Positions 9,029-45,212 are shown, counted from the first letter of the stretch. The stretch is DNA of 64,000 nt from Thermoplasmata archaeon (GCA_027314165.1 DAHVCH010000002.1:103716-167715); one strand, 5' to 3'. Numbers and translations: made by a program. Notes: generated by a model from the letters alone, not told the origin.

Positions 9029-9101
9029 TAGCCCCGACCGGATTCGAACCGGTGTCACAGGCTCCAAAGGCCCGTATGCTTGGCCACTACACCACGGGGC
9101 T
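9029..9101 (-). tRNA. tRNA-Gln (anticodon UUG)
   Basis: Cloverleaf folded by hand on the minus strand. Acceptor AGCCCCG/CGGGGCT, D stem GTGT/GCAT, anticodon stem CGGGC/GCCTG with loop CTTTGGA, T arm ACCGG-TTCGAAT-CCGGT, discriminator A. 73 nt, no CCA encoded. Confidence 0.9.
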
Positions 9102-9221: not shown

Positions 9222-10271
9222 GTGAAGGTCCTCCTCCTCGGCAGCGGCGTGCTCCCCGTTCCGCCCCCGGGCTGGGGGGCGGTCGAACGGGCGATCGACG
9301 GGCTCGCCCGGGGCCTCCAGAGCTTGGATGTCGAGGTCCAGGTCGTTCAGAGGATCGGCAGCGGCCGACCCATCGACGAGTACCGGTTCGCCCTCGCCCT
9401 CCCGAAGATGCTGCGGCAGGAGCGGGGCGACATCGTGCATGCGTCCACGCCGGTGGTCGCGAACCGTCTCATCCTCGCCCACGTACCGTACGTCTACACC
9501 TCCCATTCCCGGCACTGGAACGGGGTCCGCGGACCAAGCCAGTCCTGGGGGTTCTATCTGGAGAAGAGGGCGTGCGCACGGGCCGAAAGGACGTTCGCGC
9601 TGACGCCAAAGGTCGCGGAGCTGATGGGTCGCGTGCACCCCACGACCCGAAGGGACAGGATCCGGGTCATCCCGAACGGGGTGGACCCCGCCTTCTTCCA
9701 CGCCGAGTGGAGCGTTCGGTTCGGGCATCAGGTCCTGGGCGTGGGAGCCGTCCACCCGCGCAAGCGCTGGCACCTGGCGGCACGCGCGGTCCGGGAGATC
9801 CCCGGAGCGACGCTCACGATCGTCGGGCCCGTCCAGGACCGGGCCTACGCCGACCTAGTGGTCCGCCTGGGGGGAGGGTCCGAGCGGGTGGTCATCGCCG
9901 GCGAGGTCACCGAGGCTGAGCTTCAGCGACGCTACGCCGCAAGCGACCTCCTCCTGCATCCCAGCGGGTCGGAGCTCCTGAGCATCACCGTTCTGGAGGC
10001 CATGGCCAGCTCCCTCCCAGTGGTGGGCACGACGGTGCTCGAGGAGGAGGTGCCGGCAGGGACCGCGGGGGTCCTCGTCGACGAGCGCCTTCCCATCGAC
10101 CAGAAGGTCGCTCAGTTCCGTGAGGCGGTCTCGGCGCTTCTCTCCGACGAGGGCCGGAGGAGGGCCATGGGCCAAGAGGGGCGACGCGTCATCGAGGAGC
10201 GGCACGCGTGGCCGAAGGTGGCCGAAGCTACGCTCGCGGTCTACCGCGAGCTGCTCACTCCCCCGCGTTGA
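9222..10271 (+). CDS. glycosyltransferase family 4 (GT-B fold)
   Basis: N-terminal GWGAVERAI and C-terminal HPSGSELLSITVLEAMASSLPVV (the E-x7-E region). GTG start at 9222. Confidence 0.85.
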   Translation: MKVLLLGSGVLPVPPPGWGAVERAIDGLARGLQSLDVEVQVVQRIGSGRPIDEYRFALALPKMLRQERGDIVHASTPVVANRLILAHVPYVYTSHSRHWNGVRGPSQSWGFYLEKRACARAERTFALTPKVAELMGRVHPTTRRDRIRVIPNGVDPAFFHAEWSVRFGHQVLGVGAVHPRKRWHLAARAVREIPGATLTIVGPVQDRAYADLVVRLGGGSERVVIAGEVTEAELQRRYAASDLLLHPSGSELLSITVLEAMASSLPVVGTTVLEEEVPAGTAGVLVDERLPIDQKVAQFREAVSALLSDEGRRRAMGQEGRRVIEERHAWPKVAEATLAVYRELLTPPR

Positions 10272-11061
10272 GCGGGGTCTCGTCCTCGACACGGATCCCA
10301 TCGGCCCCGATCGTCAGGGTGTGCTCTTCCGTGTCGTGCGGGGTCCCACGCATCCGCAGGATCTGGATAGTCCGCTTCATCATCGGACCGGACCACTCCT
10401 TTCGGAGCAGCACCTCTCCACGGCAGATGACCTGCTCGGGGGTCAGCTCGTGCGACGGGGGAGGGAGCGCGGTGATGAGCGTCGTCACCTCCTTCTCGGC
10501 CAGGAAGCGGAGCAAGGACTGGATCTCCGTCCGGTCCGTCTGCTGCTCCCCCGTGGCCCTCAGCGCAAAGTGGCGGACGGAGGTCATGGAGTCGATCACG
10601 AGACGGCGTACCGGAAGGGTCTCGAGCTGGCGCCGAAGCCGGAGGTAGATCGACTGCATGGTGATGTCCTCCGTCTGCGCGGTGGCGCGGCGCTGGTCCC
10701 CGAGCTCCTGCATCGAGCGGATCTCCTGCAGGCTCTTGATCTCCTGGACGCTCCCCAGCCGGCGGTAGGCGAGCTGGCCCGGGTTCGCGTCCAGGGTGTG
10801 GATCTTCGAGAGGTCCCACCCGAACGCCCGGACGTTCTCCATGATCTCGTGCGGAGGTTCGTCCACGGCCACGAGCAGCACGGGCTCGCCGTGCCGGATG
10901 CCCTCCATCAGGAACTGAAGGCCCATGAGCGTCCGACCGCTCCCGTTGGGGCCCGTGATGAGGTAGGGTCGGCCCGGGGGGTATCCTCCCTTGAGCATCC
11001 GATCGAGCCCGGGGATGCCCGTCGTGGCCCGACCATCCTGCCGTCCACGTCCTACGACCAT
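10255..11061 (-). CDS. KaiC/RecA-like ATPase domain protein with a non-canonical Walker A
   Basis: GIPGLDRMLKGGYPPGRPYLITGPNGSGRTLMGLQF and Walker B RRLVIDSMTS. The Walker A lysine is replaced by arginine (GSGRT). ATG at 11061. Confidence 0.85.
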   Translation of the reverse strand: MVVGRGRQDGRATTGIPGLDRMLKGGYPPGRPYLITGPNGSGRTLMGLQFLMEGIRHGEPVLLVAVDEPPHEIMENVRAFGWDLSKIHTLDANPGQLAYRRLGSVQEIKSLQEIRSMQELGDQRRATAQTEDITMQSIYLRLRRQLETLPVRRLVIDSMTSVRHFALRATGEQQTDRTEIQSLLRFLAEKEVTTLITALPPPSHELTPEQVICRGEVLLRKEWSGPMMKRTIQILRMRGTPHDTEEHTLTIGADGIRVEDETPLNAGE

Positions 11062-11085
11062 GTTCGATCTCCTTCCTCCCCCGCG

Positions 11086-14000
11086 CTAGTTCCCATCGCC
11101 TTCGCCCGCGGGAGAGGAGCTCTCCTCCGCGCCCGGTTCCGCGGGGTCCTCCGGGGCCTCTCCATCGTCCGCGGGGGGAGCGGGGGATTCCTCTCCCGTC
11201 GTCGGTTCGCCGGAGGATGAGGGCTCCGTCGCCGAGTCTGCGGGTGAGGACTTCGCAGAAGAGGGATCGTCGCCCGCCGTCCCCTCAGCGGCCTGTCCCT
11301 TTCTCCGTCGGCGACCTCCACCGGAGGCTCCCGCGCCCTTCTTCCGCCGTCCGCCGCGCTTCTTGGGAGCCTCCTCTTCCGCCGGGGCCCCCGCTTCGGC
11401 GGAGGAGGAGGAAGGAGAGGTGTCGAGGGGGGGTTCGCTCCCGGCCTCAGGGGCTGAAGGAGTCACCGATGCCGCGGCGGTCCCCTCCGGGGTCTGGGGG
11501 GACACCGCATCCGGCTTCGGCGTCGGAGCGGGGGCTGGCTCCGCTCGGCTCCCCTCGCTAGGGGACGGTGGCCTCGCAGGCTCGGGGGTCGACGGGGGAC
11601 CGGGCTGGGTCCGCTCAGCCCGTGCTTCCTCCGCGGGACGGGAGATCGGCCGCTCCGAGCTTGCGGCAGGGGCCACAGGCGCGGGTGGAGTGGTGTCAGC
11701 GGGCTCCGGCCCGCTCGAGGACGCGGGCGCGGAGGGCGGCGTGGGACTCTTCTCCGGGGGCGTCGCGGTGGGTGCCACGGGCGGTGGAAGGACATCGGGG
11801 GTCGCTGGGGGCCTGGCGGGTGCCTCAGAGGCTTCAGTGGATGGTGGCGCAGGAGGCGCGGGCGCCGGGTGCTCGGCCGCCTCCACCTGCGCGGGGGACG
11901 GGTGCGGCGCAGCGGTGGAAGGCGTAGCGACCGGGGCGCCTTGTGGACGCGTCGCCTCGCGGATGCCGGCGTAGGGCGCGGGGCGAGGGGGCGCTCCCGG
12001 AGGGGGTGATCCGATCCGGCCCTGCCCCACCGGCGCACCGATGCGGTTCGGGGCCGTCGGCGCGCTTGGCCCGAGATTTACGGGGGGCGATCCGGACGGG
12101 GGCATCCTCGACACGGACGGGGCTGTCCAGGAGCCCGGAAGCGCCCGGCCGCCCGTGGGGGTCGACGCGGAATACTCGGCGCCGGAGGGGCGCGGCGTGA
12201 GCGTTGCGCCCTGCGACGGCGGGGGCGCTGCTGGAGGGGGAGATGGGCCGGGACCTGGAGCTGGGTTGGAAGGAGGCGCTGCGGCCGGCGTCGGGCCCTT
12301 GGGGGTCGGAGCCAGGGTCGCAGAGGTGGTCCCTGCCGAGGAGGCGGCCGCTGCGCTCGTGGGCGCGGTGGACTGGGCCGTAGGGGAGGGCGCGGGGGAG
12401 GATGGTTGAGCCCTCGGGGTGGCCGACGTGGTAGGAGGGGTCGGAACCTTGGGCACTGGCGGCAACGGCGTCCACGAGGACGGCCTGGCCGGGGGCGCCG
12501 CGGGGGCTTGCCCCGAGGCGGGCGGCCTCGCAATCGGAACCCCTGACGTCTGGCCCAGAACGGGCGGTGGTGTCCCCGTTCTCGGAGGAGGGGACGCGGC
12601 GGTTGGCGATCCCGTCGGCGGGGAGCCCGGTCGCTGAGGCAGGGCGGCGGGCCCGACATTGGTCCGAGGGGGGTTCGGTGAGGTTGACGGTGGGGTCGAG
12701 TACCCGCCCGAGGGAGGGGGCAGATTGCCGCCCGGCCGGGTAGGAGGGGCCGTCGGGGGAGGGTGTGGTGCGGGGACCGCCCCTCCTCCCGGGGAGGCGG
12801 GCGCGAGAGCTGGTCCGGGAGCGGTCCGAGGAGGAGCGGTGGGCGAGCTCGGAGGTATCACCGGGGGGGGAAGGGGTCTCAGCACCGTCGGAGCGGCAGG
12901 AGGCCGCGGGGGCGGTGTCGCGGTCGGTGGAGGGGGAGGCGGCCGGGAAACGGCCACATTCCCCGGGGGCGGAGCCGGATTGGGGGGTGATGTTGGAGAC
13001 GGTCTCGAGGTCGACTCCGAAGAGATGGGCGCCGCAGTGACCGGCGCGCGGGGCCCCTCGGGAGCCGGAGCCGCGGGTGCCGGTGGGTGGAAGACTGGTG
13101 CGAGAGGAGGTTCGGATGAACGCTGCGCGACGGGAGCCGTGGCCGCGGTCGGCGCGGAGGGAGCGGTCCCCGGAGAGGAGGGCCCGACGTCGCCCGAAGG
13201 AGCTCCCCCAGCTCGCTCGCTCTCCGAGGTCGCTGCGGCTCCGGGAGCGCCAGCCATCGCTTGGATTCCCGGAAGATCAGCCGCGCCCGCAACGGCCGCC
13301 GCCCGTTGGAGCAGCGCGGCAGGGAGGTTCGCCGTGATCGAGGCGCTCTCCTTCTTGCCAAGCACGCCGACGAGCCGAGAGAGCAGCGGGAGGAGCGAGG
13401 CCGCGGACTCCCGCGTGGGCTGGGAGAGCTGCGGAGCTTGTGCCGTCGGCCGAGGCGCGGGGCTCGGCGGGGTGCTGGCGACCGCGGGCGCTGCTGCGGT
13501 GGCGGAGGCGATGGAGCCCACCGGCGCCCGTCCCAGCTGGCTCTCGACGTCGCGCTTCAAGGCGAGAGATGGCCAGCTCGGCGCCCCTCCCTTCGCCGCG
13601 AACTCCTGCGACACCTGGTAGCCCAGCACCAGGTGGTTCACCATCTGCCGGGCCTCGAGCAGCAGCCGCAGCGACTCGCGGGTCTGCATCCGGGACAGCG
13701 CCGCGTGCGCCTGCTGGACCAGCTCACGCACCATGTCCACGTCGACCCCGACGTCCAGGAGGTCCTGGACATCCTCCTGGATGGTCAGGATGGCGCGTCG
13801 GGCCTCGATCATGAGCTCCGTCTCGGAGGGCTGCTCGACCTCCTCGGGCTCCTCGGAGGGGACCGGGACGACGGTGTGGGTGTCCCGAGAAATGGCGACG
13901 GACGTGTCGACGTCCATCCCGTGGGCGGAAAGCCGGAAGGGGTGGAGCCGCGGGTCGTGGGGGCTCCCCCGGATCTTCTCGATCCCCACGGCCCGGACGA

Positions 14001-14673
14001 CGCGCCCGGAGATGTCCCACCGGAAGAGGTGCACCTCCCCCCGGGCCAGCAGCCGTTCCGCGGTGGGCCGGTCGGAGTCCGCGGTCTCCACCGTGAGCAG
14101 CGAGGTGATCTTGAGGTCGGAGAGGAACCGGAGGAACGCTTGCGCGCCCTGGGCCTCGTCGAACCCTTTCATGCAGAAGTACTGGAGCGCCGTCATGGAA
14201 TCGATGACGATCCGGCTGTAGAGCCGGCGGACCGTCTCCATCTTGAGCGTCTGCATGAGGGCGCTGAAGGTGATCTCGACGCTCGTGAACTCGCCCGTCT
14301 TGCGGATCTCCTTCGGCACGTCGCCCAGGCGCATCGCCGAGCGGACCGCCGCGATGTCCTTGAACGGGGTCTTCTCGTAGCGCATGATGTCGGGGATGGC
14401 GTCGAAGATCCACACCTTGTCCAGCCCGTCCCCGAGCCCCGCGAAGTCCTGCCGAAGCTCGTTCGGGGGCTCCTCGAGCGTGACGTACAGCACGTCCTCG
14501 CCCTGCCGGACCCCCCGGAGCAGGAACTCCAGGGCCATCGTCGTCTTCCCCGCCCCCGGCGGGCCGACGATGAGGTAGGGCCGCCCGGGGAGGAGCCCCC
14601 CGTGCAGCATACGGTCGAGCCCGTCCACTCCCGTCGGTATCTTGATGTGGGGTCCGAGGAAAGCCCGCTGCAT
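11086..14673 (-). CDS. KaiC/RecA-like ATPase with a very long Pro/Ala/Ser/Thr-rich low-complexity C-terminal region
   Basis: The N-terminus GVDGLDRMLHGGLLPGRPYLIVGPPGAGKTTMALEF with Walker B RIVIDSMTAL forms a KaiC-like domain, followed by a helical segment. Roughly 800 aa of P/A/S/T-rich sequence then end in a basic patch (KKRGGRRKKG...GGGRRRRKG) and an acidic tail. Internal ATG at 14673 preferred over the ORF-track start at 14763. Confidence 0.8.
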   Translation of the reverse strand: MQRAFLGPHIKIPTGVDGLDRMLHGGLLPGRPYLIVGPPGAGKTTMALEFLLRGVRQGEDVLYVTLEEPPNELRQDFAGLGDGLDKVWIFDAIPDIMRYEKTPFKDIAAVRSAMRLGDVPKEIRKTGEFTSVEITFSALMQTLKMETVRRLYSRIVIDSMTALQYFCMKGFDEAQGAQAFLRFLSDLKITSLLTVETADSDRPTAERLLARGEVHLFRWDISGRVVRAVGIEKIRGSPHDPRLHPFRLSAHGMDVDTSVAISRDTHTVVPVPSEEPEEVEQPSETELMIEARRAILTIQEDVQDLLDVGVDVDMVRELVQQAHAALSRMQTRESLRLLLEARQMVNHLVLGYQVSQEFAAKGGAPSWPSLALKRDVESQLGRAPVGSIASATAAAPAVASTPPSPAPRPTAQAPQLSQPTRESAASLLPLLSRLVGVLGKKESASITANLPAALLQRAAAVAGAADLPGIQAMAGAPGAAATSESERAGGAPSGDVGPSSPGTAPSAPTAATAPVAQRSSEPPLAPVFHPPAPAAPAPEGPRAPVTAAPISSESTSRPSPTSPPNPAPPPGNVAVSRPPPPPPTATPPPRPPAAPTVLRPLPPPVIPPSSPTAPPRTAPGPALAPASPGGGAVPAPHPPPTAPPTRPGGNLPPPSGGYSTPPSTSPNPPRTNVGPAALPQRPGSPPTGSPTAASPPPRTGTPPPVLGQTSGVPIARPPASGQAPAAPPARPSSWTPLPPVPKVPTPPTTSATPRAQPSSPAPSPTAQSTAPTSAAAASSAGTTSATLAPTPKGPTPAAAPPSNPAPGPGPSPPPAAPPPSQGATLTPRPSGAEYSASTPTGGRALPGSWTAPSVSRMPPSGSPPVNLGPSAPTAPNRIGAPVGQGRIGSPPPGAPPRPAPYAGIREATRPQGAPVATPSTAAPHPSPAQVEAAEHPAPAPPAPPSTEASEAPARPPATPDVLPPPVAPTATPPEKSPTPPSAPASSSGPEPADTTPPAPVAPAASSERPISRPAEEARAERTQPGPPSTPEPARPPSPSEGSRAEPAPAPTPKPDAVSPQTPEGTAAASVTPSAPEAGSEPPLDTSPSSSSAEAGAPAEEEAPKKRGGRRKKGAGASGGGRRRRKGQAAEGTAGDDPSSAKSSPADSATEPSSSGEPTTGEESPAPPADDGEAPEDPAEPGAEESSSPAGEGDGN

Positions 14674-14908
14674 CCGACTCCGACCCTGCTCCGCTACGGG
14701 TGACCCCTGTCGGTCCAATGGGTCGGGCAGAACGCCACACCACTGGCCCGCACGCTCGCCCACCGTAGGCAGGCACAGTAGGGCTTGTAAGCCTACCGCC
14801 TAGCTTCTCTCGATAAGGACCACGGTGGCCTCGACCGCGGGGCCCCCGGAACCGGGTTCGTCCTCAGGCATATCTAGCAGGTGCCGCTCGGCCCCTCTCG
14901 TGGCAGAA

Positions 14909-17159: not shown

Positions 17160-18839
17160 GTGCCTAGTACGAGCGTGGAGGGGAGAGGCATCGTAGAGAT
17201 CTGCCCGATCTGCGACAGTGAGATTGACTCGGGACAGGCCAAGTGCGCCTCCTGCGGCTTCCCCACGGCTCTCCTGCCGGAGGCTCGAAAGGCCATCCAG
17301 GAGGAGGCTCCCGCGGGCGGGCCCCAGGGTCCGGCACCGACGGGCCCCGAGGGAACGGTCGATCCTCTCAACGCCGGGACCTCGCGAGGCGGTCGCGAGG
17401 AGGTTCGGGAGCCCGCCGCGGTGGTGCTCCCTCTGGGGCCAAGCGGGCCCACCGCCCCTCCCATCTCTGCGGCCGGGCTCGACATGGAGAAGACCGCGGT
17501 CGCGCTGCAGTCCTCGCTCCGGGTGGCCCAGCTTCTCGGCATGGAGACGACCGACGTGGCCTCCGCGCTCACGAACGCGGCGATGGCCGCCGCCCGCGGG
17601 GCCATGGGCGAGAGCCTGAAGGTCCTCCAGGGCGCCTACGACAAGATGGAACCGGAGATCACCGCCCGCTTCGAGGCGCTCTCGACGCAGCTCGAGGAGC
17701 AGGAGGGACGCCTGCGCGAGGAGGGCATCGCCGCGGACGTCGCGCGGGAGGTCTCCCGCTCCCGGAAGGTCTTCGAGGAGGGCGCGAGGATCGAAGGGGT
17801 CGACCTGCTGCTGCGATCCCAGCGGTCGCTGAACGAGCTGGAGTCCGCCTGGAAGCAGGTGAAGGAGACGCTGCTCCGTGTCGACAGCCTGCGGGAGACG
17901 GGCCAGAAGCTCGGCATGGACCTCTCGAAGGCCGACGAGCGTCTGGGCCAGGTCCGGGAGACCTTGGCCGAGTCGAACCTCTCGGCCGCCACGCTCCAGG
18001 AGGCGGGGACCCAGGCCTCCGCCGCGTTGGTGCTCCTGCACGAACAGGTCCGCAACCAGGTCGCGCTGCTCGGTCAGCAGGCGATCCGGAGCCTGAAGGC
18101 CCATCCCCCGCCCTCCGGACAGCGGGAGAAGGCGGAGTCGCGCCTCAAGGCGATCCTGGGCCATGCCCGGGCCGGCCGCCTGAAGGAGGCCAGCGAAGAG
18201 ATGATCCAGTTCCGCTCGCTCTTCCTCACGCCGGAGGCGGCGGCCGCACGCCCAGCCCCTCCCCCCGCGGAGGCGAGGGTGCCTCCCGAGCCCGCCGCGG
18301 CGGTCGCGCCTGCGGCCGAGTTCGTCAAGGCCGACGAAACGGCCACGTCCGCTGGGAGCGTTCCGCCCGCCCCGGTCCCGGTTCCCGAAGCCCCCTCCGA
18401 ACCCGCTCCCGCCGAACCTTCTCCACCCTCCGCGCCGGAGCCCGCGACGCGGGATGCGCCGCCTGCCGAGACCGCGCCCGTGCAGGAGACCGCGCCACCC
18501 GCGGAGGAACCCCAGTCCGCTCCGACCCCCCCCGCGCCCGCTCGGGGCTCGAGACGCCGTTCCGTCCCCGCGGAAGCCCCCAAGCCCGCCCCGGAGGCCG
18601 CGCCAGAGGAGGCGACGTCCACCGGTGGCCCCTCCACCCCCGCGCCCCGGAACCTCACGGAGATCATCACCGAGGCCCGCGACCTGGGGCTGAAGGTCCG
18701 CGATCGCCAGAAGAAGCGGAAGCCCATCGGCAACGCGGCCACGCTGCTCAAGGAGATCACGGTCCTCGTCAAGACCGGAAAGGCCGCCGAAGCCGAGCTG
18801 AAGCTCAAGGAGATCCGCGCGGAGCTTGGCGAGGACTAG
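17160..18839 (+). CDS. zinc-ribbon / coiled-coil protein with a Pro/Ala/Glu-rich linker, hypothetical
   Basis: N-terminal CPICDS...CASCG zinc ribbon, about 300 aa of heptad-like E/L/R/Q-rich sequence, a PAPE-rich segment, then a Lys-rich helical C-terminus. Overlapping frames are Arg/Gly junk. GTG start. Confidence 0.6.
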   Translation: MPSTSVEGRGIVEICPICDSEIDSGQAKCASCGFPTALLPEARKAIQEEAPAGGPQGPAPTGPEGTVDPLNAGTSRGGREEVREPAAVVLPLGPSGPTAPPISAAGLDMEKTAVALQSSLRVAQLLGMETTDVASALTNAAMAAARGAMGESLKVLQGAYDKMEPEITARFEALSTQLEEQEGRLREEGIAADVAREVSRSRKVFEEGARIEGVDLLLRSQRSLNELESAWKQVKETLLRVDSLRETGQKLGMDLSKADERLGQVRETLAESNLSAATLQEAGTQASAALVLLHEQVRNQVALLGQQAIRSLKAHPPPSGQREKAESRLKAILGHARAGRLKEASEEMIQFRSLFLTPEAAAARPAPPPAEARVPPEPAAAVAPAAEFVKADETATSAGSVPPAPVPVPEAPSEPAPAEPSPPSAPEPATRDAPPAETAPVQETAPPAEEPQSAPTPPAPARGSRRRSVPAEAPKPAPEAAPEEATSTGGPSTPAPRNLTEIITEARDLGLKVRDRQKKRKPIGNAATLLKEITVLVKTGKAAEAELKLKEIRAELGED

Positions 18840-42272: not shown

Positions 42273-45212
42273 CTAACGGATGCGCTCGAGCGAGAAGCTC
42301 CCGAGCTGGATCGACCTCTGCGTGAAGCGGTAGTCGACCCACTGCCGGGACTGGACGTCACCGAGCCCCAGGATCTGCAACTGGGTCTTGCCCCGCTCGG
42401 TCTGGAACTGGACCGCGCCGTCCATCTGCGAGACGATTCCCTGGACCTGCTGCTCGCTGTGCATCCCGCGGTCGACGCTGTAGGCGCCGAGGCTCCCCTT
42501 CGGGCGCAGGATCCCCAGGACGTTCTGGACGAAGGCCGCCGCACCCTTCTCGTCGGTCTGCGTGATGCAGGCGGAGAGCGTCAGGAAGGCCACACGGAAG
42601 CCGGTCTTGGCCTTCTCCATGTCCGCGGCGTGCCGGGAGATCGCCTGCAGGATCCCGACCATGTCGGCCGGGCCCTTGACCGTGCTCCCGCGCGCGGCCC
42701 TCGAGTCCGTCCCGGCGACCCCGGCCGGGTTGGAGGCGTCGACCCATACGAGCCGGCCCGCGCCCTCGTACTCCATCAGCGACGGGACGAGCACGCCCAG
42801 CTCCTTGGCGGTCTCCGAAGGCGATCGGCTCGTGGTGACGATGATGGCCCCCTCGCCCTTCCTCAGCCCTTCGGCCAGGAAGGCGTAGATCGCCACTTCC
42901 TTGCCCACGAAGGACGGGCCCACGAAGCCCACCTGGGCGCGTTCGGGGAAGCCCCCGAGCAGCAGGTCGTCCAGACGTGGCGTGCCCGTCGACACCTTCC
43001 CCGGCCGCGTCACCGAAGGCGTGGGGCCGATCGAGAGCATGCCCCCGGCCTCCTCGGCAGGGGCGGCCGCGGCGCCCTGGCGCTCGCGCTCGTACTGCTG
43101 GGCGCGGAGCTTCTGCTCGCGGTCTCCCAGCTGGCGCTCACGGAGCTCCAGCGCCTTCTCACGGTCCCGTAGCGCCTGGGAGATCGCCGTGTCCGCCTCG
43201 GCGCGGGACGGTGCGAGCCGCGCGGTGGTCTCCTCCAGACGGGCGCTGCGGACCCGGAGGTCCGCGAGCTGGGCCTCCACGGCGCGCTTCTGGGCGGAGG
43301 CCTCCTGCGTCATCCGTTCGGACTCCTCCCGGCGCTGCTGGACCTCCCGCTCGCGCTCCTGGAGCTTCTGCTCACGCAGGGTCGCGCTTGTCTCGCGGTC
43401 CTTCAGCTGGTTCAGCATGAGGCTCGATTGGCTCTCGACGAGCGTGCTCTTCTTCGTCGCGTCGAAGTACTTCCGGATCTCCTCTTCGTGACGCTTCGTC
43501 GCGCCCTTGAGGAGGTCGAGCTCGACCTCGTACTGCTTCTCCTTGGCCGAGAGCGCCGCCTCGCGGTTGGCGACCCCCTTCTCACGCTCGAGGATCGTGG
43601 AGGCCACCTGCTGGAGCTCGAGTCGGCGGCGTTCGACGGCCTGCTCCTTCTGGCCGGCCGCGTTGACGCGGTCGGAGACCTCGGCGCGTTGCGCCTCGAT
43701 CGCGGCCTCCCTCCGGGAGATCTCGGCGTCCTTCGCCTGGACGCGCGAACGGGCGTCGGGCGGCAGGACCAAGGAGGACTCCTTCGAGCGGACCTCGGCC
43801 TCCTTCGCGGTGGCCGCCGCGAAGCGCACCTCGGCCTCGTGCAAACGTCCCTGCGCGGTCTGGTCCACGATGCGGGCCTGGGCCTCCTGCCGGGCGACCT
43901 CCGCCTGGCGGTTCTGGACCTCGAGCTCCTTCTGGCGGACCCCCTGCTCCCGGTCGAGCAGGTTCTTTTCGCGGTCGCCGAGCCGCTGGAACCCGGTCTG
44001 CATCTCGTGCTCCCGGGCGGCGATCTGAGCGTTCCTTTCCTTGAGCGAGGCCTCGGAAGCGGTCACCTCGGCGGCCCGGGGGAGCAGCGCCTGCTCGCGG
44101 GCCCCCACCTCGTCGCCCTTCCCCCGCAGGTGCTTGTCCAGGGTCTCGAGCTCCTGGCGGCGGTCCTCGAGGAACCGGGCCCGCTCGACGAGCGTCCCTT
44201 CCTGGGCCTCGACGTCCGCCTCGCGTCGGGAGAGCGCTTCCTCCCGGAACATCGCCGCCTCGTTGCGGGTGGAGAGCTCCTGGGAGAGGGCGAAGAGCTT
44301 CTCGTGGCTGCCGGCGACGACCTCGCGCTCCTGGGCACGGGTGGCGCTCGCCATCAGGTGGAGCTGCGCGCCGCTCGCCGTGTAGAGGAACGCGGCGAAG
44401 CTGAAGGTGATCGAGAGCGCCAGGTTGAAGGCGCCCCCTCGAGACCCGAGCGCCCCCACGTTGTTGATGGGGGCCAGGGAGAAGGAGAGGGGGATGGCCA
44501 GGACCGGCGGCAGGATGGCCATGCCGACGCTGAAGATCTTCCGGTAGGGCCAGCCGCGCCAGGTGGTCCCCAGGGAGACCATCCCCAGGCTGAGGGCGAT
44601 CAGCACGAGGATGTAGATCACTCCCGAGAGGGAGACCAGCAGGTCGGGCTTCTTCCCGGTGAAATGGAAGGCGTAGATCACGGTCAGGGCGATCGAGAGG
44701 CCGAGCGCGGCCACGGTGACCGCGAAGTGGTCCTCGAACGGCCAGAACCCGTAGGTGTCGTACTTCTCGATGAACACCGCCGCAGAGAGGAAGAGCGAAG
44801 CGGCCAGAGGGAGCGCGAGGGGCAGCTGGTTGGTGATGACGGAGTCCAGGAAGGCCCCGACCTGACCCACCGTCGAGAGGGCGGAGGACCCGACGAAGAG
44901 GGCGATCGCGGAGTCCACGATGAGCAGGAGGCCGACAATGAATCCGAAGGCGAGGGCCTGGCGTCCCAGGCGGAGCTGGAAGAGGGCCTCGGCCCGGGCC
45001 CGCCCCATGTCCACCACCGTGGGAACGGTCGAGCGGCCGCGCCGCCCGCTCCTCGGCGGGGCGGTCTCGCGGGGCGCTGCCCCCGAGCCGTCGGCGGGGG
45101 AGCCGTCCGTCCCGGCGCCGGAGGCGGAGTCTGCCGAGGACCCCCAGGAGCCCTCCACGGGCCCGGACGGGGCCGCGGGAAGCCTTCGTGAGGTGGTCTT
45201 CCGCTTCGCCAT
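42273..45212 (-). CDS. multidomain protein: polytopic membrane domain + long coiled coil + C-terminal KaiC/RecA-like ATPase domain
   Basis: Residues about 75-330 contain 8-9 TM helices. Residues about 340-720 are heptad-rich E/R/A/L/Q sequence. The C-terminus GTPRLDDLLLGGFPERAQVGFVGPSFVGKEVAIYAFLAEG...WVDASNP is a KaiC-like domain with Walker A GxxxxGKE. ATG at 45212. Confidence 0.8.
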   Translation of the reverse strand: MAKRKTTSRRLPAAPSGPVEGSWGSSADSASGAGTDGSPADGSGAAPRETAPPRSGRRGRSTVPTVVDMGRARAEALFQLRLGRQALAFGFIVGLLLIVDSAIALFVGSSALSTVGQVGAFLDSVITNQLPLALPLAASLFLSAAVFIEKYDTYGFWPFEDHFAVTVAALGLSIALTVIYAFHFTGKKPDLLVSLSGVIYILVLIALSLGMVSLGTTWRGWPYRKIFSVGMAILPPVLAIPLSFSLAPINNVGALGSRGGAFNLALSITFSFAAFLYTASGAQLHLMASATRAQEREVVAGSHEKLFALSQELSTRNEAAMFREEALSRREADVEAQEGTLVERARFLEDRRQELETLDKHLRGKGDEVGAREQALLPRAAEVTASEASLKERNAQIAAREHEMQTGFQRLGDREKNLLDREQGVRQKELEVQNRQAEVARQEAQARIVDQTAQGRLHEAEVRFAAATAKEAEVRSKESSLVLPPDARSRVQAKDAEISRREAAIEAQRAEVSDRVNAAGQKEQAVERRRLELQQVASTILEREKGVANREAALSAKEKQYEVELDLLKGATKRHEEEIRKYFDATKKSTLVESQSSLMLNQLKDRETSATLREQKLQEREREVQQRREESERMTQEASAQKRAVEAQLADLRVRSARLEETTARLAPSRAEADTAISQALRDREKALELRERQLGDREQKLRAQQYERERQGAAAAPAEEAGGMLSIGPTPSVTRPGKVSTGTPRLDDLLLGGFPERAQVGFVGPSFVGKEVAIYAFLAEGLRKGEGAIIVTTSRSPSETAKELGVLVPSLMEYEGAGRLVWVDASNPAGVAGTDSRAARGSTVKGPADMVGILQAISRHAADMEKAKTGFRVAFLTLSACITQTDEKGAAAFVQNVLGILRPKGSLGAYSVDRGMHSEQQVQGIVSQMDGAVQFQTERGKTQLQILGLGDVQSRQWVDYRFTQRSIQLGSFSLERIR

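Follow-up and report, generated by a model that had tools for sequence, protein, structure and literature searches.

The window analysed here comprises 64,000 nt from a Thermoplasmata archaeon (GCA_027314165.1, DAHVCH010000002.1:103716-167715), with a GC content of about 70%. Two adjacent genes on its minus strand encode KaiC-like ATPases: a 1195-residue protein with a very long Pro/Ala/Ser/Thr-rich tail and, immediately downstream, a 268-residue partner. We show that this locus is conserved and forms a translationally coupled operon, each gene of which encodes a distinct single-domain KaiC/RecA-like ATPase. The features of the locus are listed below, counted from the first letter of the window, with the evidence for each in brackets.

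11086-14673, minus strand: long gene, 1195 residues plus stop codon (open reading frame (ORF) listing, Pfam, N-termini of homologues, ORF statistics, ratio of nonsynonymous to synonymous substitution rates (dN/dS))
13894-14646, minus strand: KaiC/RecA-like ATPase domain of the long protein, residues ~10-260 (Pfam, AlphaFold, Foldseek)
14542-14565, minus strand: canonical Walker A motif of the long protein, GPPGAGKT, which fits GxxGxGK[ST] (translation)
14197-14211, minus strand: Walker B strand of the long protein, IVIDS, residues 155-159, within RIVIDSMT (sequence)
13594-13824, minus strand: three-helix module of the long protein, residues 284-360 (translation, AlphaFold model)
13291-13422, minus strand: short helical island of the long protein, residues 418-461, SLLPLLSRLVGVL...ALLQRAAAV (model, close relatives)
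11089-13287, minus strand: Pro/Ala/Ser/Thr-rich tail, predicted disordered, residues 463-1195, ~730 residues (model, composition, stop codons, dN/dS)
11299-11364, minus strand: bipartite basic patch KKRGGRRKK...RRRRK, residues 1104-1125, KKRGGRRKKGAGASGGGRRRRK (translation)
11089-11295, minus strand: acidic Ser/Pro-rich C-terminal end, residues 1127-1195 (charge, dN/dS)
11062-11085, minus strand: spacer between the genes, 24 nt, Shine-Dalgarno-like GGAGGAAGGAG, flanked by the stop codon of the long gene (11086-11088) and the ATG of the partner gene (11061)
10255-11061, minus strand: partner gene, single-domain KaiC-like, 268 residues (Pfam, PDB match, dN/dS, conserved position)
10930-10953, minus strand: variant P-loop GPNGSGRT of the partner, with the Arg codon CGG at 10933-10935 (translation, codon census, tree)

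The open frame of the long gene spans 11086-14763. We place its start at the ATG at 14673, since the resulting N-terminus (MQRAFLGPH) agrees with the N-termini of the closest homologues and GGAG lies just 5' of this codon. From N- to C-terminus, the protein consists of the KaiC domain, the helical module and then the disordered tail with its basic patch and acidic end. Pfam KaiC (PF06745) matches residues 12-256 (E 7.8e-34; 117.5 bits against a cutoff of 26.6), and in an AlphaFold2 model built from a 60-sequence alignment the predicted local distance difference test score (pLDDT) of the ATPase domain is mostly 85-95. When this model was compared with the PDB using Foldseek, the ATPase domain alone aligned, the best matches being the hexameric RecA-superfamily ATPase PH0284 and the CI domain of KaiC (E 1e-16; target template-modelling (TM) scores 0.81-0.86). 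Walker A residues G37, G40, G42, K43 and T44 are invariant in an alignment of the long-protein family (A1), as are Walker B residues D158 and S159 in this alignment and a second one (A2). The acidic pair LE67E68PP and the finger EK233IR235G are invariant or nearly so across the family; the catalytic roles of the Walker B Asp, the acidic pair and the K/R-x-R-G finger are assigned from alignment to KaiC.

The partner is also a member of the KaiC/RecA-like domain family (PF06745; E 1.3e-46; 159.3 bits against the cutoff of 26.6). The PDB sequence matches of both proteins are KaiC chains, with E 2.7e-44 for the best match of the partner, whose RecA-like fold is assigned by sequence only. It keeps Walker B (LVIDS), an acidic pair (VD67E68PP) and an arginine-finger motif (LRMRG), and fails the canonical Walker A pattern through replacement of Lys by Arg, so that only the long protein of the pair has the canonical Lys. 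The original prediction, made from the DNA alone, had described a single KaiC/RecA domain with GPPGAGKTT and IVIDSMT, a helical segment behind it, a disordered Pro/Ala/Ser/Thr-rich tail ending in a basic patch and an acidic end, and a KaiC-like paralogue with GPNGSGRT 24 nt downstream. The Pfam matches, the three confident helices of the model, and the composition, pLDDT and charges of the tail confirm this description, all elements of which lie at the stated positions.

We scanned one genome per GTDB species, found 168 relatives, and examined the best 80 of these 168 loci, all of which are from metagenome-assembled genomes (MAGs) of Thermoplasmata. The family is defined by a long-type KaiC domain (FDAIPDxMRYE) followed by the helical module and a Pro/Ala-rich tail, and then by a small-type KaiC gene with the signatures LDANPG, VAVDEPP and LTPE; the window has all of these features. 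In 60 of the 60 loci with a complete long ORF, the small-type gene follows immediately on the same strand. Overlap by 4 bp is the commonest arrangement, and most pairs either overlap in this way or lie less than 30 nt apart. Pairing, for which a check of homologues had been suggested, is thus conserved in every informative locus. Protein searches returned hundreds of relatives, essentially all from uncultivated Thermoplasmata, and a full-length query found relatives of 884-1315 residues. Where these proteins are named in databases, they are called 'KaiC/GvpD/RAD55 family RecA-like ATPase' or 'ATPase domain-containing protein'. A full-text literature search yielded no description of such a tailed KaiC-like ATPase or of the paired family, which a review of archaeal KaiC-like proteins may nevertheless mention. 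What the original prediction presented as an unrecognised architecture is therefore a large Thermoplasmata family that is present in databases, where it is unannotated, and is apparently undescribed. It is phylogenetically broad, with Thermoplasmata from soil, peat and sediment.

The three helices of the module that follows the ATPase domain (residues 284-308, 313-327 and 331-360) are modelled with a pLDDT of 87-94. The module has no Pfam match, even at E values up to 10. A phmmer search with it against 1.84 billion representative proteins gave 11 matches, nine of them members of this KaiC-pair family; in the same scan this was the only family in which the module recurred, invariably from about residue 286 on. 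The module thus offers no clue to function. Further along, the two helices of the island (418-439 and 452-461) have a pLDDT of ~85, and the island is conserved in the close relatives P0001-P0003.

The module is also kept in seven protein clusters (P0009-P0015; ~584-627 residues) in which one chain joins a long-type domain and helical module, through a linker of ~20 residues, to a small-type domain and has no Pro/Ala-rich tail. Because these seven clusters fuse them, the two domain types are probably functionally linked; as read from their sequences, the fusions show both domain types working in one polypeptide. One MAG, Thermoplasmata archaeon SPRUCE 32 (GCA_050011075.1), carries a fusion (locus L082) as well as a split pair (L039), each in its own gene context; the family has therefore been duplicated, and both forms coexist. 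The fused gene at L082 adjoins an APH-type kinase-like gene and a PQQ/PKD protein. A further candidate, P0135 (850 residues), has the appearance of a long-type domain, a tail and a small-type domain fused together; we rejected it as an artefact, since its Arg-rich junction is typical of frameshifted read-through.

Several comparisons bear on whether the tail is coding. Its frame contains no stop in 775 codons, against 8.6 expected from base composition, and none of 2000 shuffles reached zero; the five other frames over the tail have 3-9 stops each. Locus L001 (GCA_027314175.1, DAHVCG010000015.1) is 99.75% identical to the window, with seven substitutions and no indel or stop within the long gene. 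Locus L002 (Thermoplasmata archaeon WH2.bin11), the nearest GTDB representative, keeps a 1195-codon ORF despite 54 gapped positions; these, like the many indels of its tail, are all net in-frame. A break of the ORF by a frameshift or stop, which in read-level data would by the original prediction overturn it, is not seen in these assemblies. Compared with L002, the tail of the window has 92, 66 and 164 substitutions at codon positions 1, 2 and 3, respectively. In the same comparison the dN/dS of the tail is 0.36 in the annotated frame, 1.0-1.8 in four others and, as expected, 0.44 in the antisense frame with which it has third positions in common. Along the long gene, the ratio rises from 0.06 (KaiC domain) through 0.23 (helical region) to 0.36 (tail), and falls to 0.13 over the last 100 codons.

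The tail is nonetheless the most divergent stretch of the 13.6-kb alignment to L002, with 81-85% nucleotide identity against 89-98% elsewhere. Its synonymous rate (dS) is 0.34-0.52, about threefold above the 0.10-0.15 of both KaiC domains. GC content at third codon positions (GC3) is 0.64-0.84, compared with 0.94-0.98 in the KaiC domain, and codons ending in A or T are 2-3 times commoner. Together, the drop in GC3, the A/T-ending codons and the raised dS argue for relaxed codon selection, not for a wrong frame; the divergence itself could stem either from such relaxation or from a locally raised rate of mutation or slippage. We conclude from these comparisons that the tail is translated in the annotated frame, under weak purifying selection, with the C-terminal end more constrained.

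The public gene call on L001 is at odds with this conclusion: it cuts the long gene to 852 residues, starting at the equivalent of window position 13644 and having no Pfam match, and places two antisense ORFs over the KaiC domain. Because it misses a KaiC domain with a GC3 of 0.95, this call is wrong; it is plainly a gene-caller error and no argument against the long ORF. High-GC genes with low-complexity tails are thus a systematic blind spot of annotation. Among the matches listed in a full-length protein search the exact protein is absent, and the best is 78% identical; public calls that truncate or miss the long gene leave such proteins under-represented in protein databases.

From about residue 463 to the C-terminus, the AlphaFold2 model has no secondary structure and a pLDDT mostly below 50. 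Pro accounts for 26% of residues 421-1195, Ala for 18%, Ser for 12% and Thr for 8%. The share of hydrophobic and aromatic residues is 8.8% in the tail and 35% in the KaiC domain, and the tail has no segment of transmembrane character. As had been predicted, the tail is not a tandem DNA repeat: Tandem Repeats Finder reported just five tiny arrays, with scores of at most 45. Charge is arranged in blocks, mildly basic over residues 500-900, acidic over 900-1100, then the patch at +7 and the acidic end, the last 45 residues of which have a net charge of -13.

Across the family, long proteins total 575-1315 residues (median 759; seven have at least 1000). A tail of at least about 190 residues and of the same composition is present in all 60 complete split-type genes and in the tabulated complete proteins, with Pro, Ala, Ser and Thr together accounting for a fraction of 0.44-0.72 and Pro alone for 0.18-0.34. 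The tails have this composition in common and almost no alignable sequence. Of the two possibilities raised for the tail in homologues, conservation therefore holds for its presence and composition and fails for its sequence. Of 57 complete members, 55 contain runs of at least three Lys/Arg residues; these runs number 175, whereas shuffled tails would yield 13. The final run of a tail lies at a median of 49 residues before the C-terminus, and the stretch after it has a median net charge of -4. In many lineages the terminal basic motif reads approximately KPKRRAPRRRKA-S/P-PV.

The Walker A replacement in the partner is confined to part of the family. Among 120 small-type protein clusters, 111 have Lys, eight have Arg and one has a dubious regular-expression match; among genome loci, 53 of 60 have the canonical Lys. 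The Arg-bearing loci form a monophyletic clade (window, L002-L004 and L006-L008) that uses the codons CGG, AGG and CGC, and a second case, L011, has a sister, L010, that keeps a Lys codon (AAG). Since members of one monophyletic clade encode the Arg by different codons, and since the partner has a dN/dS of 0.056 (window against L002), the Arg is, on this evidence, not a sequencing error. The tree and codons indicate that Arg arose twice independently and has been maintained through synonymous codon turnover, so that Lys-to-Arg is a derived trait, found in one clade and, separately, in L011. Members of the Arg clade depart from the Lys majority at just seven otherwise conserved columns. Conserved motifs, the low dN/dS and two origins of Arg together argue for a functional protein with a selected P-loop change and not a decaying copy.

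In the original prediction, an active ATPase paired with a degenerate one was the defining architecture; this does not hold for the family, most members of which keep Lys. Nor are the giant tail and the Arg partner linked traits, as had been assumed: within the Arg clade, the long partners are both long-tailed (1072-1315 residues) and short-tailed (621-634 residues), and tail size and Arg are therefore independent. Substitutions of the same kind have been studied in other RecA-fold proteins. In RecA, K72R 'all but eliminates' ATPase activity (PMC4001326), and Rad51 K133R is hydrolysis-deficient but binding-competent, whereas K133A is binding-deficient (bioRxiv 10.1101/070276). By analogy, the Arg partner most likely binds nucleotide and hydrolyses it poorly.

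Cyanobacterial and proteobacterial KaiC (1tf7, 8dba) provide the best sequence and fold matches, with Walker A and B, the acidic pair and the finger co-located. Neither protein reaches the cutoffs of circadian KaiC equivalogs: the scores of the two proteins are 101.7 and 131.9 bits against 408 for PRK09302, and 51.4 and 89.7 against 546 for TIGR02655. The best scores for TIGR03877, TIGR03880, TIGR03881 and TIGR03878 are 66 and 81 bits against cutoffs of 232-307. ArlH (18-21 bits against 215), RadB (19-24 against 172-278) and RadA likewise fall short of their cutoffs. By these scores, both proteins are outside circadian KaiC, the curated archaeal KaiC subfamilies, ArlH, RadB and RadA. In a single pairwise alignment, the 'ST' pair of a KaiC CII domain (S431/T432 in S. 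elongatus) falls in a gap of the query, and only the upstream Thr of LTPEQ aligns, with the Thr of VTES.

KaiC carries CI and CII in tandem in one chain, whereas here one domain each lies on separate polypeptides; the fusion paralogues recreate the two-domain chain. The 80-residue helical module after the first domain is a further difference from KaiC, although the Rhodobacter KaiC in 8dba ('dodecameric KaiC') presumably also has a helical C-terminal extension. We know of no KaiC with a disordered tail of ~730 residues. The archaeal single-domain KaiC-like ATPases (PH0284/2dr3, PH0186/2zts, SSO2452, ArlH) resemble the pair in having a single KaiC domain of ~230-260 residues, and often occur as several paralogues per genome, as in the window, which contains a third. 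Unlike them, the pair has the helical module, the giant tail and obligate pairing of two paralogue types. Makarova, Galperin and Koonin are said to have described archaeal KaiC-like ATPases as 'signal transduction hubs' (in mBio, in 2017).

The third KaiC-like architecture of the window is a 979-residue ORF (42273-45212, minus strand) that is membrane-anchored. It has a disordered N-terminus, multiple hydrophobic, membrane-like segments, a highly charged, coiled-coil-like stretch of ~450 residues and, at the C-terminus, a degenerate KaiC domain (Pfam, residues 740-830, E 7e-9) with DUF7090 and the P-loop GPSFVGKE.

Two further groups of proteins offer parallels. Paired RecA-fold paralogues in which one P-loop is altered are found in F1-ATPase alpha/beta, Rad55-Rad57 and other Rad51 paralogues, and Elp4-6; the partner has a weak match to PAXNEB/Elp4 (E 3.4e-4). 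In contrast to those systems, the degenerate P-loop here belongs to one sub-clade, most members have two canonical P-loops, and the hetero-oligomer is a predicted one. FtsZ has a C-terminal linker and a conserved C-terminal peptide, and bacterial single-stranded DNA-binding protein (SSB) a disordered linker and an acidic tip. As a functional analogy, these share with the long protein a folded core that binds nucleotide or DNA, a variable linker kept in composition, and a short charged terminal interaction motif; their folds and lineages are unrelated, and the linker here is 3 to 10 times longer.

Taking these observations together, we lean, by a modest degree, towards a flexibly tethered, KaiC-like complex of two split modules whose partner subunit, in the Arg clade, is impaired in hydrolysis. 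The two proteins would form one machine, a split two-module KaiC-like ATPase arranged as stacked rings or as a mixed ring, with the upstream subunit being the catalytically competent one. Its ATPase core would project the helical module and then a very long, fast-evolving Pro/Ala-rich linker, serving as a flexible tether or spacer that presents the clustered basic motif and acidic tip near the C-terminus. This basic/acidic end may bind a polyanionic partner (nucleic acid or a membrane surface), a protein partner or the ring itself, following the same design grammar as the linker and C-terminal peptide of FtsZ or the linker and acidic tip of SSB. In the Arg lineage, the downstream subunit would hold bound nucleotide, hydrolyse it very slowly and have a regulatory or sensor role.

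A number of points weigh against this reading. The physical interaction of the pair and its stoichiometry are putative. The fusions are paralogues, not orthologues, of the split pair, and the coexistence of both forms in one MAG therefore weakens a Rosetta-stone argument from orthology; the structure model of one fusion, P0010, is too poor (pLDDT 53, predicted TM-score (pTM) 0.36; 7-sequence alignment) to reveal how its two domains are arranged. Tail length differs about twofold between close relatives, and the tail dN/dS of 0.36 could come from selection on composition alone. The basic patch is weak or absent in the short-tailed Arg-clade members L006 and L008, and is therefore not indispensable. 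A loss of hydrolysis due to Arg is our extrapolation from findings on RecA and Rad51. Finally, the neighbourhood is conserved housekeeping synteny (PGI-like, GT4, a zinc-ribbon protein, TFB and TldD) and gives no functional lead.

As regards the Arg partner alone, it might still be a working ATPase or kinase, or the change might be neutral, in which case the pair would consist of two active enzymes. Retention of Walker B (LVIDS), D67-E68 and RMRG, strong purifying selection and the small number of conserved columns that differ from the Lys majority would all fit such an enzyme. We nevertheless consider it rather doubtful, given the predominance of Lys (111 of the 120 clusters), the near abolition of hydrolysis by Lys-to-Arg in RecA and Rad51 (PMC4001326; 10.1101/070276), and the two origins of Arg with synonymous turnover, which suggest a selected change of mode and not drift.

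A tether is not the only possible view of the tail. It could be tolerated junk, a low-complexity expansion that slippage and GC-biased mutation generated in a permissive C-terminal linker, with only the ATPase core and helical module of importance. Sequence conservation that is almost nil, total lengths that vary from 575 to 1315 residues (and from 621 to 1315 inside one clade), the position of the tail as the most divergent stretch with relaxed codon bias, and fusion paralogues that do without any tail are what such an origin would produce. It is unlikely, however, to account for the minimum of about 190 residues of constant composition kept by every complete split-type gene, for a dN/dS below 1 in the annotated frame that falls to 0.13 over the last 100 codons, or for basic residues that cluster strongly (175 runs against 13) and keep a conserved spacing from the C-terminus. 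Moreover, truncation by stop codons would be expected often in a neutral tail, and none was seen.

Alternatively, the tail could form condensates or act as a multivalent scaffold, with six or more tails per ring driving phase separation or recruiting numerous clients to the ATPase, and with ATP turnover regulating assembly. KaiC and PH0284 are oligomeric; oligomeric cores of the KaiC type would provide multivalency, hexameric entries are among the PDB and Foldseek matches, and both the length and predicted disorder of the tail and its block-polyampholyte charge layout are compatible with a scaffold. Yet the tail has just six aromatic residues in 775, and thus few 'sticker' residues, and its high Pro content would favour an expanded, non-cohesive chain, as high Pro content generally does. 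We regard a scaffold of this kind as improbable. An origin of the long ORF in faulty assembly or annotation, with the true gene ending after the helical segment or the tail being separate or non-coding, is barely credible: the split public call on DAHVCG010000015.1 (852 residues and two antisense ORFs) and the GC3 drop in the tail might suggest it, but that call misses the KaiC domain, the ORF is intact in L001 and, despite the gapped positions, in L002, the same continuous ORF is found in all 60 complete related loci, and ORF statistics and dN/dS favour translation.

Within ~10 kb of the pair, the called neighbours are a PGI-like gene, a GT4 glycosyltransferase, an aldo-keto reductase, TFB and TldD; clustering of conserved neighbours is noisy owing to shadow ORFs in DNA of 70% GC. 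The PGI-like gene lies divergently upstream of the pair and the glycosyltransferase convergently downstream. The latter (9222-10271, plus strand) overlaps the 3' end of the partner gene by 17 nt, and a GT4 gene is immediately downstream and convergent in ~33 related loci. We considered a role in defence and rejected it: the 'GT4-conflict' match of this neighbour has an E value of 4.8e-8, and general GT4 families score far higher. PADLOC gave just weak, P-loop-level matches to mad8 (E 9e-8 and 2e-3) and none for the GT4 neighbour. On the other side of the pair, a 559-residue protein (17160-18839, plus strand) has an N-terminal zinc ribbon (CPICD...CASCG), a long helical or coiled-coil region, ~170 residues rich in Pro, Ala and Glu, and a helix at the C-terminus; no other ORF of the window apart from the long gene has a long Pro/Ala-rich region. 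An ORF cluster that contains its L002 counterpart is found in 45 related loci, where it lies ~1.5 kb upstream and is encoded on the strand opposite to the pair. Homology between the window and L002 ends exactly at a tRNA-Gln gene (9029-9101, minus strand), and L001 is collinear on to window position 255, which suggests that the segment below 9029 is strain-variable and possibly an integration site beside the tRNA.

KaiC-like ATPases are among the most abundant unexplained ATPases of archaea, whose proteins seldom contain very long disordered regions. A bolder and decidedly speculative extension, which we think has only a small chance of being right, is that the pair forms the core of an unrecognised archaeal ATP-driven organiser, a two-ring KaiC-like switch with six or more disordered arms of ~700 residues. 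The arms, each with a contour length of potentially up to ~200 nm, would use their basic tips to catch nucleic acid or membrane, or would surround the ring as a brush or condensate, in a process gated by the nucleotide state that an Arg-bearing, non-hydrolysing partner would sense. If this is true, the pair would provide a rare example of a very long functional disordered region in archaea, and a concrete effector mechanism for a large and enigmatic family of KaiC-like ATPases.

Irrespective of mechanism, the architecture is real and widespread, the size of its disordered region is unusual for an archaeon, and its 'degenerate partner' aspect is specific to one clade. It constitutes a defined family in which an intact KaiC core with a linker of up to ~1000 residues is strictly paired with a second KaiC paralogue. 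Its members are split or fused, long-tailed or short-tailed, and have Lys or Arg in the P-loop, a natural series with which ring pairing, pseudo-ATPase regulation and linker function could be tested by heterologous expression.

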